From a phage, in sequence record OZ346167.1: a stretch of DNA of 64,000 nucleotides; one strand, given 5' to 3'. Both the position numbers and the translations under genes were made by a program. Of the stretch, positions 5,492 to 47,880 are shown in pieces (within the stretch, counting starts at the first letter, position 1; the number at the start of each line of letters is the position of its first letter). The notes under the pieces were generated by a model, which worked only from the letters and a program-made list of their open reading frames with translations, was not told where the DNA came from and did no database searches.

Positions 5492-5791
5492 TTAGTCTGC
5501 CAACCTTAAATTGAAATTAACACCAAATTTTTCACATACTTCCAACATATACTCAAGTGAAACATTCCCAGTGAGGTGGATTATGTTGGATACACGAGCT
5601 TGAGAGATACCACAAATTTTAGCAACTTGCTCTTGAGAAAGACCTCTGGATTTAATCTCTCTCTTAAAACGATGTGCAACGAAGTCTCTCATTTCGTCTA
5701 CATCCATTGGACAAATATAACTCTCCATTTCAGCCTCTCTATCAGCCTCCCAATCATCTTGTGGAGCATAAGGGTCAAAAACCTCATTCAT
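5492..5791 (-). CDS. HTH (XRE-like) DNA-binding protein
   Basis: helix-turn-helix segment LSQEQVAKICGISQARVSNI; start chosen at internal Met to avoid overlap with upstream ORF. Confidence 0.6.
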   Translation of the reverse strand: MNEVFDPYAPQDDWEADREAEMESYICPMDVDEMRDFVAHRFKREIKSRGLSQEQVAKICGISQARVSNIIHLTGNVSLEYMLEVCEKFGVNFNLRLAD

Positions 5792-5996
5792 CTTTCTTCT
5801 TCCGTTTGCGTGAAGTGTCAATCAATGAATCTATGTTTGTAGCCCTAACCTTTTCGCGTTCATCGTTAAAATAATCGTCAAGAGCCTTTTCAATCTGTGA
5901 ATCATCTTGACAGATAACTGTAAAGACTGTAAAGCCGTCTGTATCATCAATTATCTTACCATAGCCGCTTCTGGGATGTAACTTTTTAAGAGCCAT
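5784..5996 (-). CDS. Hypothetical protein
   Basis: 70-aa ORF. Confidence 0.4.
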   Translation of the reverse strand: MALKKLHPRSGYGKIIDDTDGFTVFTVICQDDSQIEKALDDYFNDEREKVRATNIDSLIDTSRKRKKKDE

Positions 5997-9372: not shown

Positions 9373-9939
9373 TCAAGATAGTTTTGCAAACTCTCCGTGG
9401 AGTTTAATAGCAGCTTCACAGTAAGCTTTATGGGCTTCTTCAGGTGTGTCATGGTAACCTAAAAACATCTTCTTACCTTTATAACTTATCTGTGCGACCC
9501 ACTTACCAGACTTCTTCTTCAGGCTTACACCCTTATAGCCTGATTTATTGGTGGATAGTTTGCTTTTATTCCAAGCACTTTGGTAGTCATATGCTTCTCT
9601 TAAGTTTACAATCCTGTTATCAAGGGAGTCTCCATTAATATGGTCAATAACACCTTTCGGCAACCTACCATACATGTACAGCCATGCGAGTCTGTGTGCT
9701 TTATGTGCTTTCTTGTCAAAATAGATAGTAATCTGCTTATGACCAGTTGAGTCAATCTGGATGCTCCCCGCTACCTGTCCTGCGTACTGACTATTAAAAA
9801 CTTTAACAGCCTTTGAGTCGCCCTCTCTACGAAGCCAAGTAAAGACCCCTGTTTCGGGGTCATAGTGTAGTAGTTCCTTTAAACGTTCTTTTGTAATCAT
9901 TTTGTCACCATTAATGCACTTCCAACCACGATTTACCAA
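9373..9939 (-). CDS. HNH homing endonuclease with AP2-like DNA-binding domain
   Basis: LHYDPETGVFTW N-terminal motif, HINGD..N HNH core, GYKGVS..GKW AP2-like tail; paralog of 19771..20262. Confidence 0.8.
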   Translation of the reverse strand: MVNRGWKCINGDKMITKERLKELLHYDPETGVFTWLRREGDSKAVKVFNSQYAGQVAGSIQIDSTGHKQITIYFDKKAHKAHRLAWLYMYGRLPKGVIDHINGDSLDNRIVNLREAYDYQSAWNKSKLSTNKSGYKGVSLKKKSGKWVAQISYKGKKMFLGYHDTPEEAHKAYCEAAIKLHGEFAKLS

Positions 9940-10465
9940 CCTTTGCTGTACCAGTTACAAGTGTTTCTTTCCTCAAACCTAAGTTTTTTGAAGCTTGTCC
10001 ATACATCCAGTCAGCAATTGCTTTCATATCATGTGTCATACCCTCTGGACATTCCCAACTATTTTCATCGTGATATGCCAGAAGTAACCTTGCTCCGATA
10101 GCTGGTTTTCGAGCATTCAGTTTTGTCAGGCCATCTTCACAGGCTTTTCTTGCTGCTAGGTTGATGGCCTCATTCTGAATCTGTGCTTCCGAACTCATCA
10201 GGAGGTAGTTCAGTAGTTTATGTGGAGATTTGCACCATATCCATGCTCCAGCGACCCTGATATAACCACCTTTAGCAATTGAAGAATTCTTCCCAAAAAC
10301 CTCTTCCAGAGCCTTTTTAGACGCCTTAAAATCGGCTTCTAAGCTATCAAGTAACTTCTTAATCTTTGGCAGACGCATATAGTAAGTTTGTTTAGTTAAT
10401 GCACCTTCCTCTGTAGAAGCTGCCTTAATGGTTTTGGCAAACTTCTCATCACCTGCACCGAACAA
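9911..10465 (-). CDS. DNA polymerase (family A), 3' exon: end of motif B and motif C
   Basis: begins (L)FGAGDEK (motif B end; T7 pol has YGAGDEK) and contains LLAYHDE (motif C). Confidence 0.8.
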   Translation of the reverse strand: MFGAGDEKFAKTIKAASTEEGALTKQTYYMRLPKIKKLLDSLEADFKASKKALEEVFGKNSSIAKGGYIRVAGAWIWCKSPHKLLNYLLMSSEAQIQNEAINLAARKACEDGLTKLNARKPAIGARLLLAYHDENSWECPEGMTHDMKAIADWMYGQASKNLGLRKETLVTGTAKVGKSWLEVH

Positions 10466-10736
10466 TACATCTGGTCAATACACTCGCAAGGTGTACCAGT
10501 TCTCTTATGAACTTCTCCGCATTTCTACGGAGTGTCGGACTATATCACGTAGTAGTAATACTACCGTTGCACTTGGGAATGGTCATTGGCTTACCACCCT
10601 ACTCTACTCAGTTCATACGTTAAGTATGCTTTTCGATAGTCTCTGAACGTTCCTCTTAAGAGGCTTCGCTGCTGATTACCATATCTTTACAGACTTAGGC
10701 TTCCAGCAATTCACAACGTTTTACATGCGCCACTGA
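10466..10736 (-). mobile_element. Group I intron (ORF-less, about 270 nt) splitting the DNA polymerase gene inside motif B; boundaries approximate
   Basis: stops in all frames; transcribed strand carries Q/R/S-like core elements AATCAGCAGC, GTTCAGAGACTA, GATATAGTCC. Confidence 0.7.
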
Positions 10737-12908
10737 CGCATAAATGCCATTTTTGGCTTTCTTACGACCTTTTGTAATCTCGTGGAGAAGTTCCTCATCC
10801 TGTGTCTCCCTACAACGAACAATATCTTCTTCCTTGTTCAGACCAAAGTAAATACTGTTCAGTGTATGCGCATCAGTCCCTGTGTAGACTTCATAGAGGT
10901 CGTTCTCAGCATCATAACGAAGATACTTGTCAGTTTCTGGATTAAGGTGCTTATCAAGATGTTTGCAATAATATCTCCCATCTTCTTGCTTGGTAAATTC
11001 TACTGACTCTTTACCTTCAGTTACTGCTTTAGTGAACTCTTTATCACCCATAAAGTTACACAGTAAAACAAGCTGTGCAGAGTTCTGGTCAACAGAAACA
11101 ATGTTAGTCCCCTCTTCACAAATCCACACTGCCCTCATAGGTGCTCCATAGACAGCAGCACCAGACGGTACGTTTACAATACCATATTGTGTCATACGTC
11201 CAGTTGAAGTACCAAACACCATTGCACCAGCACTAAGGCGACCATCAGGACGAATCTGGTTCAACCAACCTTTTTCATCATCCTTTGAGTTCTCAATAGT
11301 TCTGCGTCGGTGCATCAAAGTATAGTACTTAGCAATCTTCTGTCCAAGCTCACCTTCAATCGTATCATAAGATGATTCAGTAAGTTTTGGTGAAGTACGG
11401 ATTAAGCAAGGCTCAAGCAAGTCTGTGTATTTCTTCACAGACCAGTTATGCTCAATGTACTGTACACCTTCATGTTCAACATAACTCAAACCACACCGCT
11501 CAACCATTTCCTGCCACTTAGGATGCTTTGTAATCATCTTTTTATTGTCTTTGAAACGACAAACTTTGACAGGGCGACCATCTGAGTCTTTCTTGTAATT
11601 CCAGTCATCTGGAATCCAACCAACTGATTTCAAGTAGTCTTTAACAACTGCTACCTGAGTCATACGAGAAACTTCAAACTCAATTGGTGTATATGGTGCA
11701 TCAATCAAACCTGTGTAGCGACTTGACTCAAGTTCAAAGTGATTAACAACGTGGCTGTTATAGTACTTCACAGTTTTGACTGTTTTTACTGGCTTCCAGT
11801 CTTTGCATTTCTTACCAATCTTTGCGTTCAACTCATTGCAAATTGCACGAGCATCCTTCATTGCTACAAATCCCTCTTTGTACTCTTCACCAGTTACAGA
11901 GTTGGTTGGTGTATAGCAATTTCTCTTTTCAATGTTAAAAATCTTTGTAGTTGGCTTACCAAATGGCTTGATTTCATATGTCTGCATCTCACCGTTACGT
12001 ACCTGCTGACGATACTTTGTCTTAGGGTACTTGGTAATCCTCTTCAGCCCATCTGCATGACCGAATGCTTCAACATATTCATTCCAAGCTTTTGCAAACT
12101 CTTCTCCAGTAACTTTACCTTTGGTCTTAATAGTTGGAGGAAGATGTGGTTCAACCTCTGAAGCAAGCTCATTAGTCAACTTGTCAAGTTCCTTTACATG
12201 GAACTCCATAAGCTCTTTATCAGCTTTCCAACCATTGATAGCTTGCTGGCTCATCCAGAAAGATGTTTCTTTAGCTCGCATGTAGGTTTCATAAGTGTCT
12301 ATGCCACACTTCTTAAGCTTGAGATACTCGTTATCAAGTGCCCGTTTAGTTTTGGCGTTAATACGGATATCTTCTACGACACGAGTGAAGATTTCTGCAT
12401 TCCACACACCCCAATGCTCAATCTCTGGCTTACGAACACCAACACGAGCACCCCATGCAGCCAAACCATGAGCACCTTTATAACCCTTTGGAGTTGGCCT
12501 ATCCATCCACTGAACACGAGACTGGATAAGAGAATCCTGAAAGAAATTACCCCACGGCTTACATTTTGGATTATCAAAGTTCCATAAATCAGGTGCAATG
12601 TGATTGAAAACCCACCAGTCATAACCGAGACCATTATGGATGCAAAGACGTTTTGCCTTTAACGCAAATTCAACACCTTCACGTAAACCACCTTTGATGT
12701 ACTTAGTGTACTTGTGACCGAGGATAGGCTCATCTGTAAAGACCCATACAGGTGGCTCTTCATCGTCAGATTTATAGTCTGCAAAGGCCATTACGTGAAC
12801 TTTAGTGAACTCAAGGAGTAAACCATCAGTTTCTGTATCACCAACCAAATGTAAGTTTTTAAAATCTACGTTTTCCATTTTTACTCCCTCTAAAATCATT
12901 AACCTCAT
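10695..12908 (-). CDS. DNA polymerase (family A) with 3'-5' exonuclease domain, 5' exon (ORF runs into the intron; true exon probably ends near 10737)
   Basis: exonuclease motif VGDTETDG near N-terminus; ends ...RKKAKNGIYA at start of motif B. Confidence 0.85.
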   Translation of the reverse strand: MRLMILEGVKMENVDFKNLHLVGDTETDGLLLEFTKVHVMAFADYKSDDEEPPVWVFTDEPILGHKYTKYIKGGLREGVEFALKAKRLCIHNGLGYDWWVFNHIAPDLWNFDNPKCKPWGNFFQDSLIQSRVQWMDRPTPKGYKGAHGLAAWGARVGVRKPEIEHWGVWNAEIFTRVVEDIRINAKTKRALDNEYLKLKKCGIDTYETYMRAKETSFWMSQQAINGWKADKELMEFHVKELDKLTNELASEVEPHLPPTIKTKGKVTGEEFAKAWNEYVEAFGHADGLKRITKYPKTKYRQQVRNGEMQTYEIKPFGKPTTKIFNIEKRNCYTPTNSVTGEEYKEGFVAMKDARAICNELNAKIGKKCKDWKPVKTVKTVKYYNSHVVNHFELESSRYTGLIDAPYTPIEFEVSRMTQVAVVKDYLKSVGWIPDDWNYKKDSDGRPVKVCRFKDNKKMITKHPKWQEMVERCGLSYVEHEGVQYIEHNWSVKKYTDLLEPCLIRTSPKLTESSYDTIEGELGQKIAKYYTLMHRRRTIENSKDDEKGWLNQIRPDGRLSAGAMVFGTSTGRMTQYGIVNVPSGAAVYGAPMRAVWICEEGTNIVSVDQNSAQLVLLCNFMGDKEFTKAVTEGKESVEFTKQEDGRYYCKHLDKHLNPETDKYLRYDAENDLYEVYTGTDAHTLNSIYFGLNKEEDIVRCRETQDEELLHEITKGRKKAKNGIYASVAHVKRCELLEA

Positions 12909-12937
12909 ACATTACTGCAAAAAATTATAAAAAGCAA

Positions 12938-12961
12938 GTTGACAATGTACTTGACAAGGTG
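12938..12961 (+). promoter_or_regulatory. Conserved promoter-like motif GTTGACAATGTACTTGACAAGGTG in divergent intergenic region
   Basis: same ACTTGACAAGGTG core recurs at 29434 and 55241. Confidence 0.4.
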
Positions 12962-13135
12962 TTAATCTTTGCGAAGTGGGTTTTTACTTAAAAGGTTACT
13001 TAACAGTTTAACTATACAGATACTTTAAAACTCTTAAAAGATTATTTAATAGCTTTTAAAAAGCTTTAAAGTATAACGTATAGAATACGTTAAGATAAAA
13101 GATTAAAACTTAATAGTTACTTAAAAGAGGCTTAC

Positions 13136-13558
13136 ATGCAGAAAATGTTTGTTCACCCAGACATAGCTGACTTTGTTAGAGCTTTGCAGAAGTTGGAAGA
13201 ACTTGACATTGCTGCTCAACGGGAATATGCTCACCATCACAGGAGAATGGTTGATATACAACATGAAATAGAGTTATCTGAAAACTATGAAGATGACTTA
13301 AAATGCTCTGTATTTGAGCATATGAAAGATGTTGCTACAGCGAGACGTAAAGCTAAAGACACAGTTGCTTTACTAGATTCTCTTAAAAAGAGGTTGCAAA
13401 GTGGTACAGACCTGTGTAATCTAGCGTCACTGATTAACGATGTTGAAACTTCTTGGGATAGGCACTATTATCCACGTTCTGAAAAGACACTTGACTTTTC
13501 TTCATCCGAAAACTTAAAATGTTCTAGAAAGAAACTTAACCAACTGAGAGAGAAATAA
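13136..13558 (+). CDS. Hypothetical protein
   Basis: 140-aa ORF. Confidence 0.55.
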   Translation: MQKMFVHPDIADFVRALQKLEELDIAAQREYAHHHRRMVDIQHEIELSENYEDDLKCSVFEHMKDVATARRKAKDTVALLDSLKKRLQSGTDLCNLASLINDVETSWDRHYYPRSEKTLDFSSSENLKCSRKKLNQLREK

Positions 13559-15374: not shown

Positions 15375-17352
15375 AGGTCGTAAATTGAAAGAGGCTGGTC
15401 AGTTTGTTGGTCATTGTGCATGTCCACGTTGTGGTTCATCAGATGCTGGTTCAATCTATCATCATGACGATGATTCTTATTCGATGACTTGCTTTAGTTG
15501 TAAGAAAGGTTTCCCAGAGTGGGATTTTGATAAAGGACAAATCGTGAGCACTTATTCTACTGGTTCAGACAATAAAAACCGTACTTTCCGTGGAATGGAT
15601 TTAGACGATGTAAAAGAAAACCTAGAAGCAATGGACTTGAAAGACAGGAAGATTCCTGCAAAAGTTCTTGAGCGTTTGGGTATTAAGGTTGACATTGACA
15701 GTGATGGTGAAATTGACGCACATTTCTACCCAACTTACAAACGTAATGAAGATGGTAAGCTAGAACATGTTGGCTACCGTGTTCGTCACCGTTACCCAGA
15801 AGACCATCCAAAAGAGCACCTACGTGGTAAGCTAAAAGACTTCTCAGGTGGTGTTGGAGACATTAAAGGTGAACTGGCAATGTTCGGTTCATGGATTGCT
15901 CCAGAAGGTGGTAACCGTCTATTCATCTGGGAAGGTGAGATGGAATGTGCGACCGCAATCTATATGACTTCTCTTGCGATTAAGGACAAGTCTCGTCGTA
16001 AGAATTACTGTCACGTATCTGTCCCATCAGGTGCAAACATTAAGTCTATCAAAGACAACTATCAGTACATTACATCATTTGATGAGATTTACTTGTGCTT
16101 TGATAATGATGAAGCAGGTGCTAAAGCTACCAAAGAGGCTGCTGGCATTCTCCCTATCGAGAAGGTTCGTTTATTTCAGTATCCAGAGGGTGTAAAAGAC
16201 CTTAACGAATGGTGGACAAAGTTCTATAAAGAGAAAGACACAGTTCTGGAAGGATTTAAGCAGCGTATCTACAATGCACCTCGTTACTGTCCTGCTGGTA
16301 TCAAGAACTTTGCAGATGGTTTTGAGGCAATGAAGAATCGTGGTCAGATTCCATTGATTCCTTTCCCAGAATCTTTCGGAGATTTGAACAGGCTGACTTA
16401 TGGTGGTTACGGTTTAGGTGAGATTACAACTATTGCAGCACCATCTTCAGTAGGTAAGTCAGCTTACACTCGTGAGATGATTTATTCAGCTTGGAAAGAA
16501 ACTGATTATAATATCGGTGTAATTCCTGTAGAAGATACTTACGAAGAACTTATGGAAATGCTCTGTGCAATCCACCTGAGCAAGCAGATTTCTGAGATTC
16601 CTTATGATGAACGGGATTGGGATGAATTAAAAGGAGCACACGCAGAACTATCTAAAGGCCGTCGTATCCATATCGTTGACCATCAAGGGGCAATTGACCA
16701 AGATAACCTGCTAGAGTTTGTTGACTATCTTGTTAACAGTTTAGACTGTAAGATTATCATTCTTGACCCTATCACGTTGGCTCTGTCACGTTCTGATACG
16801 GATGAAGAGGAAGTATTGTCTGAACTATTGCGTCGTTGCAAACGCTACCAGTATGCACAGGTAAACGTCTGTCACGTTCGTAAGAGTGCAGGTGGTCAGA
16901 AGGCTAACTCTGAAGGTGGGGATATCTCTGAAGAGGATATTAAAGGCTCTGGTGCGTATTTCCAGATTTCTATGAACAACATTCTGTTAATGCGTAACAA
17001 GGTTGACCCAGACCCTGTTAAGAAAAACTTGACAAAAATCAAGCTAACTAAATGTCGTCGTCACGGTAAGTCAACGGGTATTGCTGGTCATACTTGGTAC
17101 AATCCAGATACAGGACGCCTCATTAAAGCATCTGGTTGTGGAGTTGACATTGATGGTGCAGCAGAAAATATTCGCCAACAGTTTGGTATTGGTGAAGCTG
17201 AAGACCATTACGATGATTCTTTGCCACATTATGAGGATGAAGTGTTTGACCGTGAGACTGGTGAAGTCTATACTGAAGAGCAGCGTCAAAGCTCAACGAT
17301 TCCACCTGTATTAAGTGAGGATGCAGATGACTGCCCATTCGAAACTGAGTGA
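15361..17352 (+). CDS. DNA primase-helicase (T7 gp4-like)
   Basis: N-terminal Cys4 zinc finger (CPRCGS...CFSCKKG), central primase region, helicase Walker A APSSVGKS. Confidence 0.85.
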   Translation: MLMSKGRKLKEAGQFVGHCACPRCGSSDAGSIYHHDDDSYSMTCFSCKKGFPEWDFDKGQIVSTYSTGSDNKNRTFRGMDLDDVKENLEAMDLKDRKIPAKVLERLGIKVDIDSDGEIDAHFYPTYKRNEDGKLEHVGYRVRHRYPEDHPKEHLRGKLKDFSGGVGDIKGELAMFGSWIAPEGGNRLFIWEGEMECATAIYMTSLAIKDKSRRKNYCHVSVPSGANIKSIKDNYQYITSFDEIYLCFDNDEAGAKATKEAAGILPIEKVRLFQYPEGVKDLNEWWTKFYKEKDTVLEGFKQRIYNAPRYCPAGIKNFADGFEAMKNRGQIPLIPFPESFGDLNRLTYGGYGLGEITTIAAPSSVGKSAYTREMIYSAWKETDYNIGVIPVEDTYEELMEMLCAIHLSKQISEIPYDERDWDELKGAHAELSKGRRIHIVDHQGAIDQDNLLEFVDYLVNSLDCKIIILDPITLALSRSDTDEEEVLSELLRRCKRYQYAQVNVCHVRKSAGGQKANSEGGDISEEDIKGSGAYFQISMNNILLMRNKVDPDPVKKNLTKIKLTKCRRHGKSTGIAGHTWYNPDTGRLIKASGCGVDIDGAAENIRQQFGIGEAEDHYDDSLPHYEDEVFDRETGEVYTEEQRQSSTIPPVLSEDADDCPFETE

Positions 17353-17608
17353 TAGTTATAAAAGAGAGGGGTTCACACCCTTCTTTGAAGAAAAAAGTTT
17401 AAATAAATTTCAGGAAGAGTGTTTGACAAAGATTGATAGGTTCTATAGAATGCTCTACATGAAATGTGATGGCGGTGTTGAGGTAGAAGAAAAGTTCCAT
17501 CACAGTATTATCACAGTCACTATTACTATACCTGAACATAATATTGGTTGGCTGTTTATAATGAAAGAAAATGTGTTTGAATATCAAGTATATCGGAGAA
17601 TATCATGA
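17315..17608 (+). CDS. Hypothetical protein (start uncertain)
   Basis: 97-aa ORF overlapping primase-helicase 3' end. Confidence 0.3.
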   Translation: MRMQMTAHSKLSDSYKREGFTPFFEEKSLNKFQEECLTKIDRFYRMLYMKCDGGVEVEEKFHHSIITVTITIPEHNIGWLFIMKENVFEYQVYRRIS

Positions 17609-39250: not shown

Positions 39251-40030
39251 ATGGGTATTGTAAAAGTTGTAAAAGGTAACTTACTGGCTGCCTTCAAAAA
39301 CACAGATATTGAGTTAATTGCTCATGGTTGCAACTGTCGTAACCTCATGGGTGCTGGAATCGCTCAAAAAATTGCTAAGATTTTCCCAAAAGCTGAAGAA
39401 GCTGACCGGAAATTCCATAAAAAGTTTGGCTACAGTGCTCATGATATCGGATACCAGATGGTGGGTGAGGTGTCACATGCTCGAACGGAGTACGGTTACA
39501 TTTTTAACCTGTATACACAGTTGGATGTTGGGAAGTGTGCATCATACCGATACTTAGTGGAGTCACTAGAAAAACTCCGTAAGTTTTGCTGGCTGCACAA
39601 CATTCGTAAGATTGGTTTACCCATGATTGGTGCAGGTATCGGTGGTTTAGATGCACAAGCTGTGAAAAGCCTCATTAATAGTGTTATGTACAACGTTGAT
39701 GTGTACCTATATGTCTATGATGAAGCAATGGCAAGTGTAGTTACCCCTAAGTATGCTACCTCAGCACCACAATTCTATGATGGTGTCGTGCTCAGTGATG
39801 GTAAGTCTAACCATGTTACCCTCTATCAGCTTGTTGATGGTGAAGTTGAGGTTAGTTACCCTCTGGTTAGTGAGATGGGTATGTGCAATAGTGAAATGTT
39901 CCCAGTTGACCCGTTTGGAAGATATGAAGGTGTATTCTTTGATAACTACCCAGCAGCGTACATCTACACAACAAATCAGGATGAAGTTCACTACTTGCTG
40001 TATTCTAAAAAGTTCAAATTCATAAGCTGA
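39251..40030 (+). CDS. Macro domain protein (ADP-ribose binding/processing)
   Basis: macro-domain hallmark AHGCNCRNLMGAGIA and second glycine-rich loop GLPMIGAGIGG. Confidence 0.7.
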   Translation: MGIVKVVKGNLLAAFKNTDIELIAHGCNCRNLMGAGIAQKIAKIFPKAEEADRKFHKKFGYSAHDIGYQMVGEVSHARTEYGYIFNLYTQLDVGKCASYRYLVESLEKLRKFCWLHNIRKIGLPMIGAGIGGLDAQAVKSLINSVMYNVDVYLYVYDEAMASVVTPKYATSAPQFYDGVVLSDGKSNHVTLYQLVDGEVEVSYPLVSEMGMCNSEMFPVDPFGRYEGVFFDNYPAAYIYTTNQDEVHYLLYSKKFKFIS

Positions 40031-40059: not shown

Positions 40060-40105
40060 TAAGAAGGCTGCCTAACCCATTGAAAAATTTAAGGTAAGGC
40101 GGCCT
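40060..40105 (+). terminator. Terminator-like hairpin
   Basis: AAGGCTGCC..GGCGGCCTT + TTTTC. Confidence 0.5.
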
Positions 40106-40420
40106 TTTTCATTTTCAATTTGTGCAGGTATCTGTAGGGGTCTGTACAGATATCCCAAAAAATCTCATCGCCGGATAGAAAAATCATTCTCAAAACGTGC
40201 AGACCCCGCTCAGGTCGGGCAAGAAAAATCATTTTAGAATTGTGCAGGTAGGTTTTTATAGAGAGCCAGCCCAGCCCCTCTCCCCCTCTTACTCCCCCTC
40301 TCCCCAAAAGTCAAGAGAAAAATTTGTAGCGGATTGAAAAATAATTCTTGATTTGCGTTCTGTTTTGTGGTAGTCGTGCGCACCCGTTTCATTACAGTTT
40401 TGCCAAAAATATTTTTAAAA
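40105..40420. repeat. Iteron-like direct repeats (AAAAATCATTnnnAnnnTGTGCAGG, about 4 copies) with a C-rich tract CCCCTCTCCCCCTCTTACTCCCCCTCTCCCC
   Basis: repeat copies near 40105, 40185, 40222, 40322; no ORF with RBS. Confidence 0.55.
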
Positions 40421-40426
40421 TTTTTA

Positions 40427-40518
40427 TTGACTCTTTGAACGTGGTTACCTAATATTTACATCAACGGGGAGGGAATGACCTTCCCCACTAAATAAAATCC
40501 TAAACTGGAGATTCAAAA
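40427..40518 (+). promoter_or_regulatory. Early-type promoter (TTGACT-N17-TAATAT) + leader hairpin GGGGAGGGAATGACCTTCCCC + conserved RBS leader
   Basis: type-2 reiterated element, also at 43068, 43934, 45178, 45745, 46339. Confidence 0.6.
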
Positions 40519-40707
40519 ATGGCATCAAGAAAAATTAAAGTTGGCGATGAGGTTAACATCAAGCACGAACACTCTTACAAAATGCTAACTATACGCTCTT
40601 ATAAGGTTTATCAGGTGGAAGCTATCCACAAAGATAACACTTTTTCCTTAAAAGGTTATAGCGAACGTTTCCCTGCTGAACTCTTTGAGAAATGGAGCGC
40701 GAAATAA
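40519..40707 (+). CDS. Early small protein
   Basis: 62-aa ORF behind type-2 element. Confidence 0.55.
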   Translation: MASRKIKVGDEVNIKHEHSYKMLTIRSYKVYQVEAIHKDNTFSLKGYSERFPAELFEKWSAK

Positions 40708-40913
40708 TGCTTTACAGTCGTGAATTGATGGTTACAACTAACGTTAACACAAAGGTAAAACGTTTTTACATGCAAATTTGTGGCGTATGGTCTAGAATAT
40801 CAGAGGCTGACTATTGCAACTATGTAGAAACAGCTATAAACTCTAATTGCTATCTTACAAGAAATACAAGAAAGTACATAAGACAGACAGCAATTTACTA
40901 CTACGATAAATAA
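40707..40913 (+). CDS. Early small protein
   Basis: ATG overlapping upstream stop (TAATG). Confidence 0.5.
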   Translation: MLYSRELMVTTNVNTKVKRFYMQICGVWSRISEADYCNYVETAINSNCYLTRNTRKYIRQTAIYYYDK

Positions 40914-40999
40914 AGTACTTTACAAGGGGCTTATAGTTCGATAAAGTAAGCCCCAGATAAAGAGCTTTACCACTAAATCCTAAACTGGAGAACTTAAAA
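40914..40999 (+). promoter_or_regulatory. Type-1 intergenic element: hairpin GGGGCTTA..TAAGCCCC + conserved leader AGATAAAGAGCTTTACCACTAAATCCTAAACTGGAGA
   Basis: reiterated at 41384, 41762, 42362, 43435, 44226; stem shows compensatory changes. Confidence 0.6.
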
Positions 41000-41383: not shown

Positions 41384-41469
41384 AGTACTTTACAAGGGGC
41401 TTATAGTTCGATAAAGTAAGCCCCAGATAAAGAGCTTTAACACTAAAATCCTAAATTGGAGATTCTAAA
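41384..41469 (+). promoter_or_regulatory. Type-1 intergenic hairpin/leader element
   Basis: same sequence family as 40914..40999. Confidence 0.6.
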
Positions 41470-46744: not shown

Positions 46745-47040
46745 GTCCTATCAAATCCCTTATACAACCCTTTTCCTTTCCTTTCCAGAATCTTACCAGA
46801 CCTTAAAAGCAATAACTTTACAGCCTTTTACTAAGTCAATTAATTGGCCTTATTAATAAGTCCTTAAACATAAGCCAATAACCCCAGAAAGGGGCAACCC
46901 GTTTAAACGCTCTATAAAGCTCTATAACAGCCTTATCAACCTAACTTAAGGGATTGCATTAACTCACCCTAAAAAGCCCTTTATAAAGCTTCCCAGAGAC
47001 TTAAAAGAATCTTATAAAGGTGTAAGCTTTATTCATCCGT

Positions 47041-47244
47041 TTATAAAATAGGACTGTCAAGTTATTTTTTAGGGTCTTTGAAGGAACTCAAAAATATCTG
47101 TAGAAGATGTATATCTGCTTGGTAGCCCTTAACAATCCCTTACAAGTACTTTGCAAAATTTTAAAATATCCTTAACAATCTCTTAACAGTTCTCACATCT
47201 TCTTAACAACTCTTCAAAGGTCTTAACAGATTCTTAACAAACCC
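47041..47244. repeat. Left arm of ~204-bp inverted repeat
   Basis: reverse complement of 47677..47880 with about 2 differences. Confidence 0.8.
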
Positions 47245-47676
47245 TACATAGTTATGCTTGTTAGCCCCTTGTTAAATCTCTGTTAAGACCATGTAAAAGC
47301 CTTGTAAGAGCCTTTGACATAGCCTTAAAAGCTCCTGTAAAGCCCTATAAAGAGCTTTCTGTATAGTTGGGGTGTAACTACTAGGAAGAGACTTAAAAGA
47401 GCTTATAAAGAGCTATAGAGAGCTTTTAAGAGGTATGTTTAAAGAATCACTAAGAGGGAAAGGGAACTATAGACCAAGAGATAGTGACCATGTTAATAGC
47501 TTGTTAAAAAGATTAAACACTTGTTAGGAATTTGTTAATTATCTTAATTGGTATTGTTACCAATCCCTACAAAATAATCCTTTAAAATTAACTTGTTAGC
47601 TCTTGTTAGCAATCTGTTAAGATTCTGTAAAGTCTATGTAGCACTTGTTAGAGATTTGTTACACCCTTGTTAGTTC

Positions 47677-47880
47677 TGTTAAGAATCTGTTAAGACCTTT
47701 GAAGAGTTGTTAAGAAGATGTGAGAACTGTTAAGAGATTGTTAAGGATATTTTAAAATTTTGCAAAGTACTTGTAAGGGAGTTGTTAAGGGCTACCAAGC
47801 AGATATACATCTTCTACAGATATTTTTGAGTTCCTTCAAAGACCCTAAAAAATGACTTGACAGTCCTATTTTATAAAAAT
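47677..47880. repeat. Right arm of ~204-bp inverted repeat
   Basis: reverse complement of 47041..47244. Confidence 0.8.

Follow-up and report, generated by a model that had tools for sequence, protein, structure and literature searches.

A conserved array of iteron-like direct repeats in the non-coding spacer ahead of the small-gene cassette of Felix O1-like phages

The window considered here is a stretch of 64,000 nucleotides (64 kb) of sequence record OZ346167.1, a Felixounavirus, i.e., a Felix O1-like myophage (subfamily Ounavirinae, family Andersonviridae), and the element in question is a set of three direct repeats in a non-coding spacer of about 450 bases ahead of a cassette of small genes. 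The repeats lie in the same (+) orientation and form an array that occupies the same syntenic site in each of the subfamily's three named genera, namely Felixounavirus, Mooglevirus and Kolesnikvirus, and in an additional uncultured lineage. Judged by these comparisons, the array is a selected, non-coding, cis-acting DNA element conserved across the subfamily rather than a product of chance, because it keeps its place while the macro-domain proteins encoded next to it are only 31-42% identical between lineages. No description of the array, or of any Ounavirinae origin, was met in the literature searched, which included the Felix O1, wV8, UAB_Phi87, comparative Felixounavirus and PhageMaP papers; with respect to that literature, this is an iteron-like array of binding sites that has not previously been described.

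The repeat unit is asymmetric and about 26 bp long, and the consensus built from the copies reads WWWWW-TCATTTT-N6-GTGCA. The three copies are the following:

40105-40130, + strand: repeat R1, TTTTTCATTTTCAATTTGTGCAGGTA, recognized in the sequence and by two profiles (E = 2e-6 and 8e-4).
40178-40204, + strand: repeat R2, GAAAAATCATTCTCAAAACGTGCAGAC, recognized in the sequence and by both profiles; the ancestral third copy.
40223-40250, + strand: repeat R3, GAAAAATCATTTTAGAATTGTGCAGGTA, recognized in the sequence and by both profiles; the ancestral fourth copy.

The start-to-start spacing from R1 to R2 and from R2 to R3 is 75 and 45 nt, and the array follows the terminator of the rII/lysis/macro-domain operon and precedes the first promoter of the small-gene cassette, with all three repeats 5' of a C-rich tract. 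A preliminary description of this DNA had proposed about four iteron-like copies that begin with five A residues and flank this tract. The direct repeats themselves are real, all on the + strand and supported by the profiles, but they number three; the supposed fourth copy (GAAAAATAATTCTTGATTTGCG, starting at 40336) is missed by both profiles and is part of a separate conserved block, so that no repeat stands on the far side of the tract, and R1 opens with five T residues that belong to a run shared with the upstream terminator.

The first of the two profiles was made from 21 units taken from five phages, and its only matches in the window are at 40102-40130, 40177-40203, and 40222-40252 (E = 2e-6, 7e-4, and 2e-6, respectively). 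The second was made only from the repeats of the Erwinia phage phiEa21-4 and of a metagenomic contig, L054, and is thereby independent of the window; its top matches in the 64 kb fall on the same three sites (E = 8e-4, 1.6e-3, and 0.017), and the next one has E = 0.6. No further copy of the motif was found elsewhere in the 64 kb, the other promoters of the cassette included. When patterns with two copies were searched, bacterial genomes returned 15 matches, all in unrelated metagenome-assembled genomes, plasmids returned nothing related, and IMG/VR contained no relatives outside Ounavirinae-like contigs, and a single copy of the repeat matched nothing conserved among 5,426 E. coli genomes. A mimic of a host chromosomal site was rejected because of the missing E. 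coli match and the lack of relatives in bacterial genomes or plasmids. A CRISPR-like array, or a solitary unit of one, was set aside in view of the irregular spacing and of the lack of a host repeat resembling the unit; the same applies to sigma-70 promoters within the repeats, whose matches occur in phiEa21-4 and VSe11 only and are not conserved.

The comparison with relatives carries most of the argument. BLAST of the region retrieved about 230-260 phage records, nearly all from Felix O1-like myophages of Escherichia, Salmonella, Shigella, and Citrobacter. In an alignment of 13 Felixouna- and Moogleviruses the repeats, a downstream segment here termed block B, and the cassette promoter are nearly invariant, and the spacers between them are variable; the array is also carried by phiSUSP1, which is now placed in Mooglevirus. 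The relatives have four or five copies, all on the + strand, with spacings of 73/39/45, 75/41/45, or 37/37/39 nt, and every lineage has its copies in the same order and orientation. Four copies represent the ancestral state, from which the clade of the window phage (together with BPS17L1, finno, and Si3) differs by the loss of one through a 33-nt indel.

Among the named genera, phiEa21-4 (Kolesnikvirus) has the same layout of macro-domain gene, spacer (about 460 bp), and small-gene cassette. Its spacer contains four copies of GGnnnnnTTTTTCATTTTCAATTTGTGCATAG spaced 37, 37, and 39 nt, followed by a C-rich patch, an AT-rich tract, and a TTGACT promoter, and when it is aligned to Felixounaviruses by blastn the repeats are the only part that can be aligned. 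The R1 copies of the window and of phiEa21-4 share 23 consecutive identical bases, and the left flank of R3, GGTCGGGCAAGAAAAATCATTTT, is nearly identical to that of copy 3 in phiEa21-4. The pattern search of IMG/VR added a fourth lineage (L054 with L074; L072/L073), which has the same synteny and five copies, more degenerate, of AAAATTCATTTTAAAAACGTGCATAGG. These contigs are from an uncultured lineage of about 85-88 kb, all from one metagenome, with the order macro-domain gene, repeat array, and small-gene cassette (reverse complement of L054, 5350-5760, joined with L074; and L072). The lineage has no blastn match among GenBank phages, and the best matches of the macro-domain protein of L054 are in T4-like Acinetobacter phages, at about 50%. 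On this evidence conservation of the array far exceeds that of the surrounding genes, and it is the strongest-conserved non-coding sequence noticed in the region. The preliminary description had regarded absence of the repeats from close relatives as the finding that would speak against it, and the relatives, as just described, possess them.

The window phage also records an exchange at this site. The segment 39251-40184, which covers the macro-domain gene together with the left-hand portion of the spacer, is a different allele from that of most Felixounaviruses, and the encoded macro-domain protein has about 41% identity to theirs. The mosaic joint is located at 40184, inside R2, where the BLAST matches of most relatives begin, and this position suggests that the repeats act as crossover patches.

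Sites that are unique in the window, strongly selected, asymmetric, and all in one orientation point to a sequence-specific factor that binds them, and we consider it quite probable that the array is a protein-binding cis element. As the site is near-invariant across genera, the putative factor should itself be very conserved, either a host protein or a core protein of the phage. By-eye comparison with known consensuses gave no close match for IHF, CRP, Fur, Fis, NtrC, and marbox sites, or for sigma-54, sigma-32, and sigma-E promoters, Tus/Ter, and Chi. Among the host factors compared in this manner, the DnaA box alone comes close, and this in phiEa21-4 and L054 only. The GAAAAT-C-ATTTTC portion of two units resembles the Fur 7-1-7 site, and the other units are without it.

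The features that surround the repeats, from left to right, are:

39251-40030, + strand: macro-domain ('phosphatase') gene, an open reading frame (ORF) labelled macro domain or phosphatase in relatives; last gene of the rII/lysis operon and anchor of the synteny.
40061-40109, + strand: intrinsic terminator hairpin, long in the minimum-free-energy fold; a rho-independent terminator is annotated at the homologous place in ASO1A, KhF2, and wV8.
40234-40392, - strand: 52-codon ORF, annotated as bas63_0097, Phi87_49, and Pr103Blw_00144.
40266-40305, + strand: C-rich tract, the most C-rich 40-mer, with a G-quadruplex motif on the minus strand and a potential i-motif or rut-like character on the + strand.
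40306-40351, + strand: conserved block B, AAAAGTCAAGAGAAAAATTTGTAGCGGATTGAAAAATAATTCTTGA, nearly invariant in the 13 Felixouna- and Moogleviruses; the supposed fourth copy falls within it.
40398-40427, no strand: AT-rich tract, 27/30 A/T, which may serve as UP-element region of the promoter or in DNA unwinding.
40427-40455, + strand: sigma-70-type promoter TTGACT-17-TAATAT, found by promoter scan, annotated in ASO1A, and kept by every relative in the alignments; it is the first promoter of the small-gene cassette.
40466-40521, + strand: 5' leader hairpin GGGGAGGGAATGACCTTCCCC, conserved ribosome-binding module AAATCCTAAACTGGAGA (DR_6 in the wV8 annotation), and the start codon ATG (40519) of the first gene in the cassette.

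The T-run of the terminator (40105-40116) doubles as the 5' half of R1. Between the end of the last repeat (R3 in the window) and the -35 element of the first cassette promoter there are 177 bp in the window, 203 bp in phiEa21-4, and about 221 bp in L054, and the DNA in between is non-conserved. The AT-rich tract ties for the most AT-rich 30-mer of the window (top 0.02% of windows). Beyond the promoter extend about 6.7 kb of small + strand genes, and the placement of the repeats at the head of the early cassette, as first proposed, is therefore correct; for the first ten of these genes no Pfam domain scored above the cut-off, and all of them fall into PHROG families of unknown function.

The C-rich tract had been quoted correctly: CCCCTCTCCCCCTCTTACTCCCCCTCTCCCC is at 40275-40305, and it is a genuine local outlier, since the best + strand 40-mer has 27 C of 40 and the runner-up in the window has 19. 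Its minus strand, GGGGAGAGGGGGAGTAAGAGGGGGAGAGGGG, is the sole canonical G-quadruplex motif, (G>=3 N1-7)x4, that the two strands of the 64 kb contain, and may fold as such. The tract is carried by 24 of 41 relatives and is replaced in the remaining 17, including VSe11, VpaE1, and the Bas63 clade, by GTGGGTGCAGGTGGGGATGTCGCCATTTCTCACAAGGCTACCACATCTGGAAAT of equal length with 19-25% C, while the spacer of phiEa21-4 keeps a weaker homologous C-rich core, CCCTCCCCTCTACC, also given as TCCCCTCT(T)AC. From this distribution, the C-rich form is probably ancestral and yet, as the substituted genomes indicate, dispensable. As a possible rut site, the tract is suitably rich in C on the + strand but short, about 40 nt against the 60-80 nt expected, and it is not kept in the 17 relatives with the replacement. 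Block B, immediately downstream, includes a minus-strand TTGACT (40309-40314) that is invariant in the 13-phage alignment and may be the -35 element of a leftward promoter; at the corresponding place phiEa21-4 has a leftward promoter match, TTGACG-18-TATACT (10/12).

The position of the array relative to the genome ends can be deduced from two relatives. A direct terminal repeat of 581 bp was determined for Pr103Blw by PhageTerm (PMC8303462), and one of 608 bp for UAB_Phi87 by Bal31 digestion and run-off sequencing (PMC4837284). The Pr103Blw repeat, which is annotated and identical at both ends of the record, maps to 47221-47796 of the window, and also to a 614-bp segment of UAB_Phi87, in line with the measured 608 bp. 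With a terminal repeat of about 580 bp at this place, the array is 7.4-7.7 kb from the right physical end, and only the small-gene cassette is interposed. The segment 47221-47796 is bracketed by a TTAACA array (47129-47281, mostly + strand) and a TGTTAA array (47677-47783, - strand), with spacings of 11/20/20/11 nt, which together form an inverted repeat of about 200 bp (47040-47239 versus approximately 47680-47880). Clusters of this kind occur nowhere else in the window, comparable ones are present in phiEa21-4 at 17111-17420, and they may serve as packaging or end-processing sites.

Regarding the function of the array, the reading that we place first, with a probability of about 0.3 and thus tentatively, is that of a transcription-coupled, origin-like initiation site; it is only slightly ahead of a boundary or regulatory role, and the probability left over by all the readings listed in this text goes to roles that were not considered. 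The steps of the mechanism are proposed only. The bound repeat array would organize the DNA, and transcription from the flanking promoters, the strong rightward one at 40427 and possibly a leftward one with its -35 element at 40309-40314, would open the AT-rich tract. Leftward transcription would proceed over a C-rich template, hence yielding a G-rich RNA prone to persistent RNA-DNA hybrids, and such a hybrid could be used as primer by the primase-helicase and the family A polymerase of the phage. The replication genes of the window encode a primase-helicase with Toprim and DnaB_C domains (T7 gp4-like) and a family A DNA polymerase, so that by its domain content the replisome is T7-like. Replisomes of the T7 type start from transcripts and need no Rep protein. 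The anatomy of the spacer is also origin-like, as it combines same-orientation repeats, a top-ranked AT-rich 30-mer, the only G-quadruplex motif of the window, and one or more flanking promoters. The 30-mer, as a possible unwinding element, is short, lies about 150 bp from the last repeat, and occupies the UP-element position of the promoter as well. A further point in favor comes from L054, where a 120-bp AT-rich TTAACA array (11/20-bp spacing) abuts the repeat array, and additional TTAACA clusters are found at the distal end of the cassette; those of the window and of phiEa21-4 are confined to the terminal-repeat region.

Several observations weigh against an origin. No Rep or initiator gene was recognized by Pfam and PHROG among the ten downstream genes, and the upstream gene is the macro-domain gene. 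The T7-like replisome, which speaks for priming by transcripts, argues at the same time against the iteron half of the model, because T7-type origins have no iterons. The spacing of the repeats, here and in the relatives, is irregular and not helically phased. With respect to the DnaA box TTWTNCACA, for which the preliminary description had advised a comparison, the units of the window (ACCTGCACA or GTCTGCACG, minus strand) have 3 mismatches and contain no box, whereas there is 1 mismatch in phiEa21-4 and there are 1-3 in L054, with most copies of both at 1-2. The C-rich tract is replaced in the 17 relatives mentioned above, and no leftward promoter of the window passes the filter of the promoter scan, the -10 element being poor (TAAGAG). 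In addition, there is another candidate for the origin, the AT-rich divergent region at 12908-13136, which lies between the polymerase (- strand) and the primase/helicase module (+ strand) and contains two of the top AT-rich windows of the 64 kb. Finally, PhageMaP reports positions of about 46-66 kb of Bas63 as uniformly non-essential, a span that includes ORFs 96/97 overlying the array; this counts weakly, since it is based on single insertions and is a statement on the span rather than per-site data. The suggestion of an iteron-type origin or an operator array is sustained only as far as a conserved cis element is concerned: the lack of a recognizable Rep gene and the irregular spacing tell against the former, and the uniqueness of the motif and its distance from the promoter against the latter.

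Known origins resemble the array in part. With iteron origins, such as lambda ori, P1 oriR, and those of the pSC101/RK2 type, it shares several non-palindromic sites of about 20-26 bp, in the same orientation and unique in the genome, an AT-rich tract and promoters nearby, and, in some relatives, a 3' half of the unit that is near the DnaA box. It differs from them in that no gene for an initiator of the Rep or O type is found beside the array or is recognizable in the window, in the irregular spacing of 37-75 bp in place of about 22 bp in phase, in the T7-like replisome, and in repeats that are near-invariant across genera, whereas iterons usually diverge with their Rep. Transcript-primed origins, e.g., the T7 primary origin, T4 oriF/oriG, ColE1 RNA II, and the ori of the lactococcal phage c2, have no conserved direct-repeat array. 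The likeness to these lies in an intergenic promoter by an AT-rich tract, a C-rich template, the lack of a dedicated initiator, and the T7-like primase-helicase and polymerase; the differences are the presence of the array, the weakness of the leftward promoter, and the absence of the C-rich tract from part of the relatives.

The main competitor, also tentative, is a role as a transcription boundary or regulatory array, in which a protein bound to the repeats past the terminator would insulate the early cassette from upstream read-through, control the 40427 promoter and a divergent leftward one at a distance, or do both; the C-rich nascent RNA, by loading Rho, or a G-quadruplex in the template strand could strengthen the barrier. 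The location of the array between terminator and first sigma-70 promoter is constant in every lineage, the T-run is common to R1 and the terminator in each of the three named genera, the tract downstream of the terminator is C-rich and G-poor on the + strand, and the non-essential phenotype suits a regulator better than a sole origin. A candidate binder is encoded at 5492-5818 (- strand), a 108-aa helix-turn-helix (HTH) protein of the XRE/Cro-C1 type (Pfam HTH_3, E = 6e-10), the only HTH regulator among 25 window proteins scanned; however, XRE dimers normally bind inverted rather than direct repeats. Also against a regulator, the motif is absent from the other cassette promoters and from the rest of the window, and the repeats neither overlap nor directly adjoin the promoter but are separated from it by a variable 177-221 bp of non-conserved DNA; the C-rich tract that would reinforce the barrier is missing in 17 of the 41 relatives, and phage regulators normally diverge together with their operators, so that a near-identical motif across genera would be unusual. 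The operators of P2 Cox and 186 Apl, with sites of about 10 bp that are phased and overlap the promoters they control, are a partial parallel: they too consist of several same-orientation sites near divergent promoters, on which a bent nucleoprotein complex is built, but the units of the array are about 26 bp long, unphased, and at least 177 bp from the promoter. Rather unlikely, in our opinion, is a boundary for DNA entry or anchoring comparable to the injection-stop (iss) region of T5, in which the array, as the inner edge of a terminal early-gene segment (about 8.5% of the genome), would pause the DNA through a host protein such as DnaA. The iss region is located inside a terminal repeat of about 10 kb and contains inverted repeats, palindromes, and paired DnaA boxes (Davison, bioRxiv 10.1101/866236). 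Both regions consist of conserved non-coding repeats that are better kept than the neighbouring ORFs and bound the terminal early genes (about 8% of the genome), with units that are DnaA-box-like in some members of the family: in phiEa21-4 and L054, most units have a 3' half (CTATGCACA and similar) that is within 1-2 mismatches of the box, and in L054 the array is paired with a terminus-type TTAACA array. Unlike in T5, the array lies outside the terminal repeat, which is about 580 bp long and 7 kb away, and its repeats are direct; the units of the window phage are 3 mismatches away from the DnaA box, the best-conserved half of the unit, TCATTTT, is not part of that box, and neither a two-step transfer nor a first-entering end was met for Felix O1-like phages in the literature, for which no dedicated search was made. 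The fuller form of this model is somewhat more doubtful still; according to it, Felix O1-like myophages would deliver or expose the early cassette of about 7 kb first, the array, occupied by a conserved factor of the host or the virion, would hold the DNA, and the TTAACA arrays would act as the other boundary. If the array proved to be an entry boundary, it would add a second known example of staged genome delivery to that of T5.

The remaining alternatives are less probable than the origin-like site or the transcription boundary. It seems improbable that the spacer matters through a gene product, be it a non-coding RNA transcribed leftward across the repeats or the small proteins that annotations of some relatives place on the minus strand (bas63_0096/0097, Mordin_126, Sf14_gp118, and BPS17L1 gp012). 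Every relative has open frames on both strands and in several of the possible frames, and the same frame is not kept across genera; the spacings given above put the repeat units in different frames while their nucleotides stay alike. The only frame open throughout Felixounavirus is the 52-codon ORF on the minus strand, intact in 22/22 distinct sequences examined, with both alleles of the C-tract segment, and not kept in Mooglevirus or Kolesnikvirus. Its ATG is not preceded by a Shine-Dalgarno sequence, whereas a strong CTGGAGA module is found with genes of this phage. Its variable sites are distributed over codon positions 1/2/3 as 7/4/6 and 6/13/5 in the two allele groups, without a third-position excess, and most of its variable codons are amino-acid-changing, as in two control frames. 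A coding role was rejected for these reasons, and the claim that the region has no credible ORF holds. For a leftward RNA, the conserved minus-strand TTGACT and the good promoter match in phiEa21-4 are in favor; folding of the minus strand is no better than that of shuffled sequences (z = -0.33), that of the + strand (z = -2.2) derives mostly from the terminator hairpin, and Rfam has no family match, the best being ctRNA over the terminator with 21 bits against a cut-off of 50 bits. Very unlikely is an array devoid of its own function, left over from serial duplications near the terminator and kept as a recombination patch between mosaic modules. Such a history would agree with the overlap of R1 with the T-run, with the variable copy number including the copy missing from the window clade, and with the mosaic joint within R2; it is at odds with cores that are almost identical despite the 31-42% identity of the neighbouring proteins, since neutral duplicates are expected to decay, and with the order and orientation of the copies, which are fixed in every lineage. 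A genome terminus or packaging recognition (pac) site is hardly credible and was rejected, as the terminal repeat is located about 7 kb further right. What had spoken for it is that three assemblies break within the spacer: MN850610.1 (Andreotti) starts here, KC139638.1 (FSL SP-107) has a contig end here, and MT446388.1 (TH10) has both its ends here, overlapping by 73 bp at 40283-40355, in and just past the C-rich tract. These breaks are better explained by, and suggest, a disturbance of sequencing or assembly by the repeats or by the C/G tract.

Felix O1-like phages are widely used in typing, biocontrol, and therapy of Salmonella and E. coli, and Bas63 is emerging as a genetic model. The timing of transcription is given as unknown in the Felix O1 genome paper, and identification of the protein that binds the array would offer a way into the question of the replication origin or of transcription timing in these phages. 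For those who engineer their genomes, it would also show which 350 bp should be left alone, or could serve as a landmark.

Some minor features of the window complete the picture. Most cassette genes are preceded by a repeated module (40911-40969, 41389-41417, and onward through the cassette), which consists of a promoter match, TTTACA-17-TAAAGT, inside a GGGGCTTA...TAAGCCCC hairpin, followed by the same ribosome-binding module that precedes the first gene. These modules correspond to the 'DR' repeats of the wV8 annotation, which are listed for Felix O1 as well; being promoter and leader modules within the cassette, the direct repeats listed for those two phages are distinct from the R1-R3 units. 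Elsewhere, the family A polymerase gene is apparently split into two ORFs (10695-12908 and 9911-10465, - strand), and an ORF for a homing endonuclease with HNH and AP2 domains (9373-9936, - strand) overlaps the end of the second piece. The window contains 25 tRNA genes. Two records of other hosts, GU169904.1 (Staphylococcus phage SA1) and MG065664.1 (Campylobacter phage A132), include stretches 82-97% identical to this Felixounavirus region, which look like chimeric or contaminated assemblies rather than a true host range.

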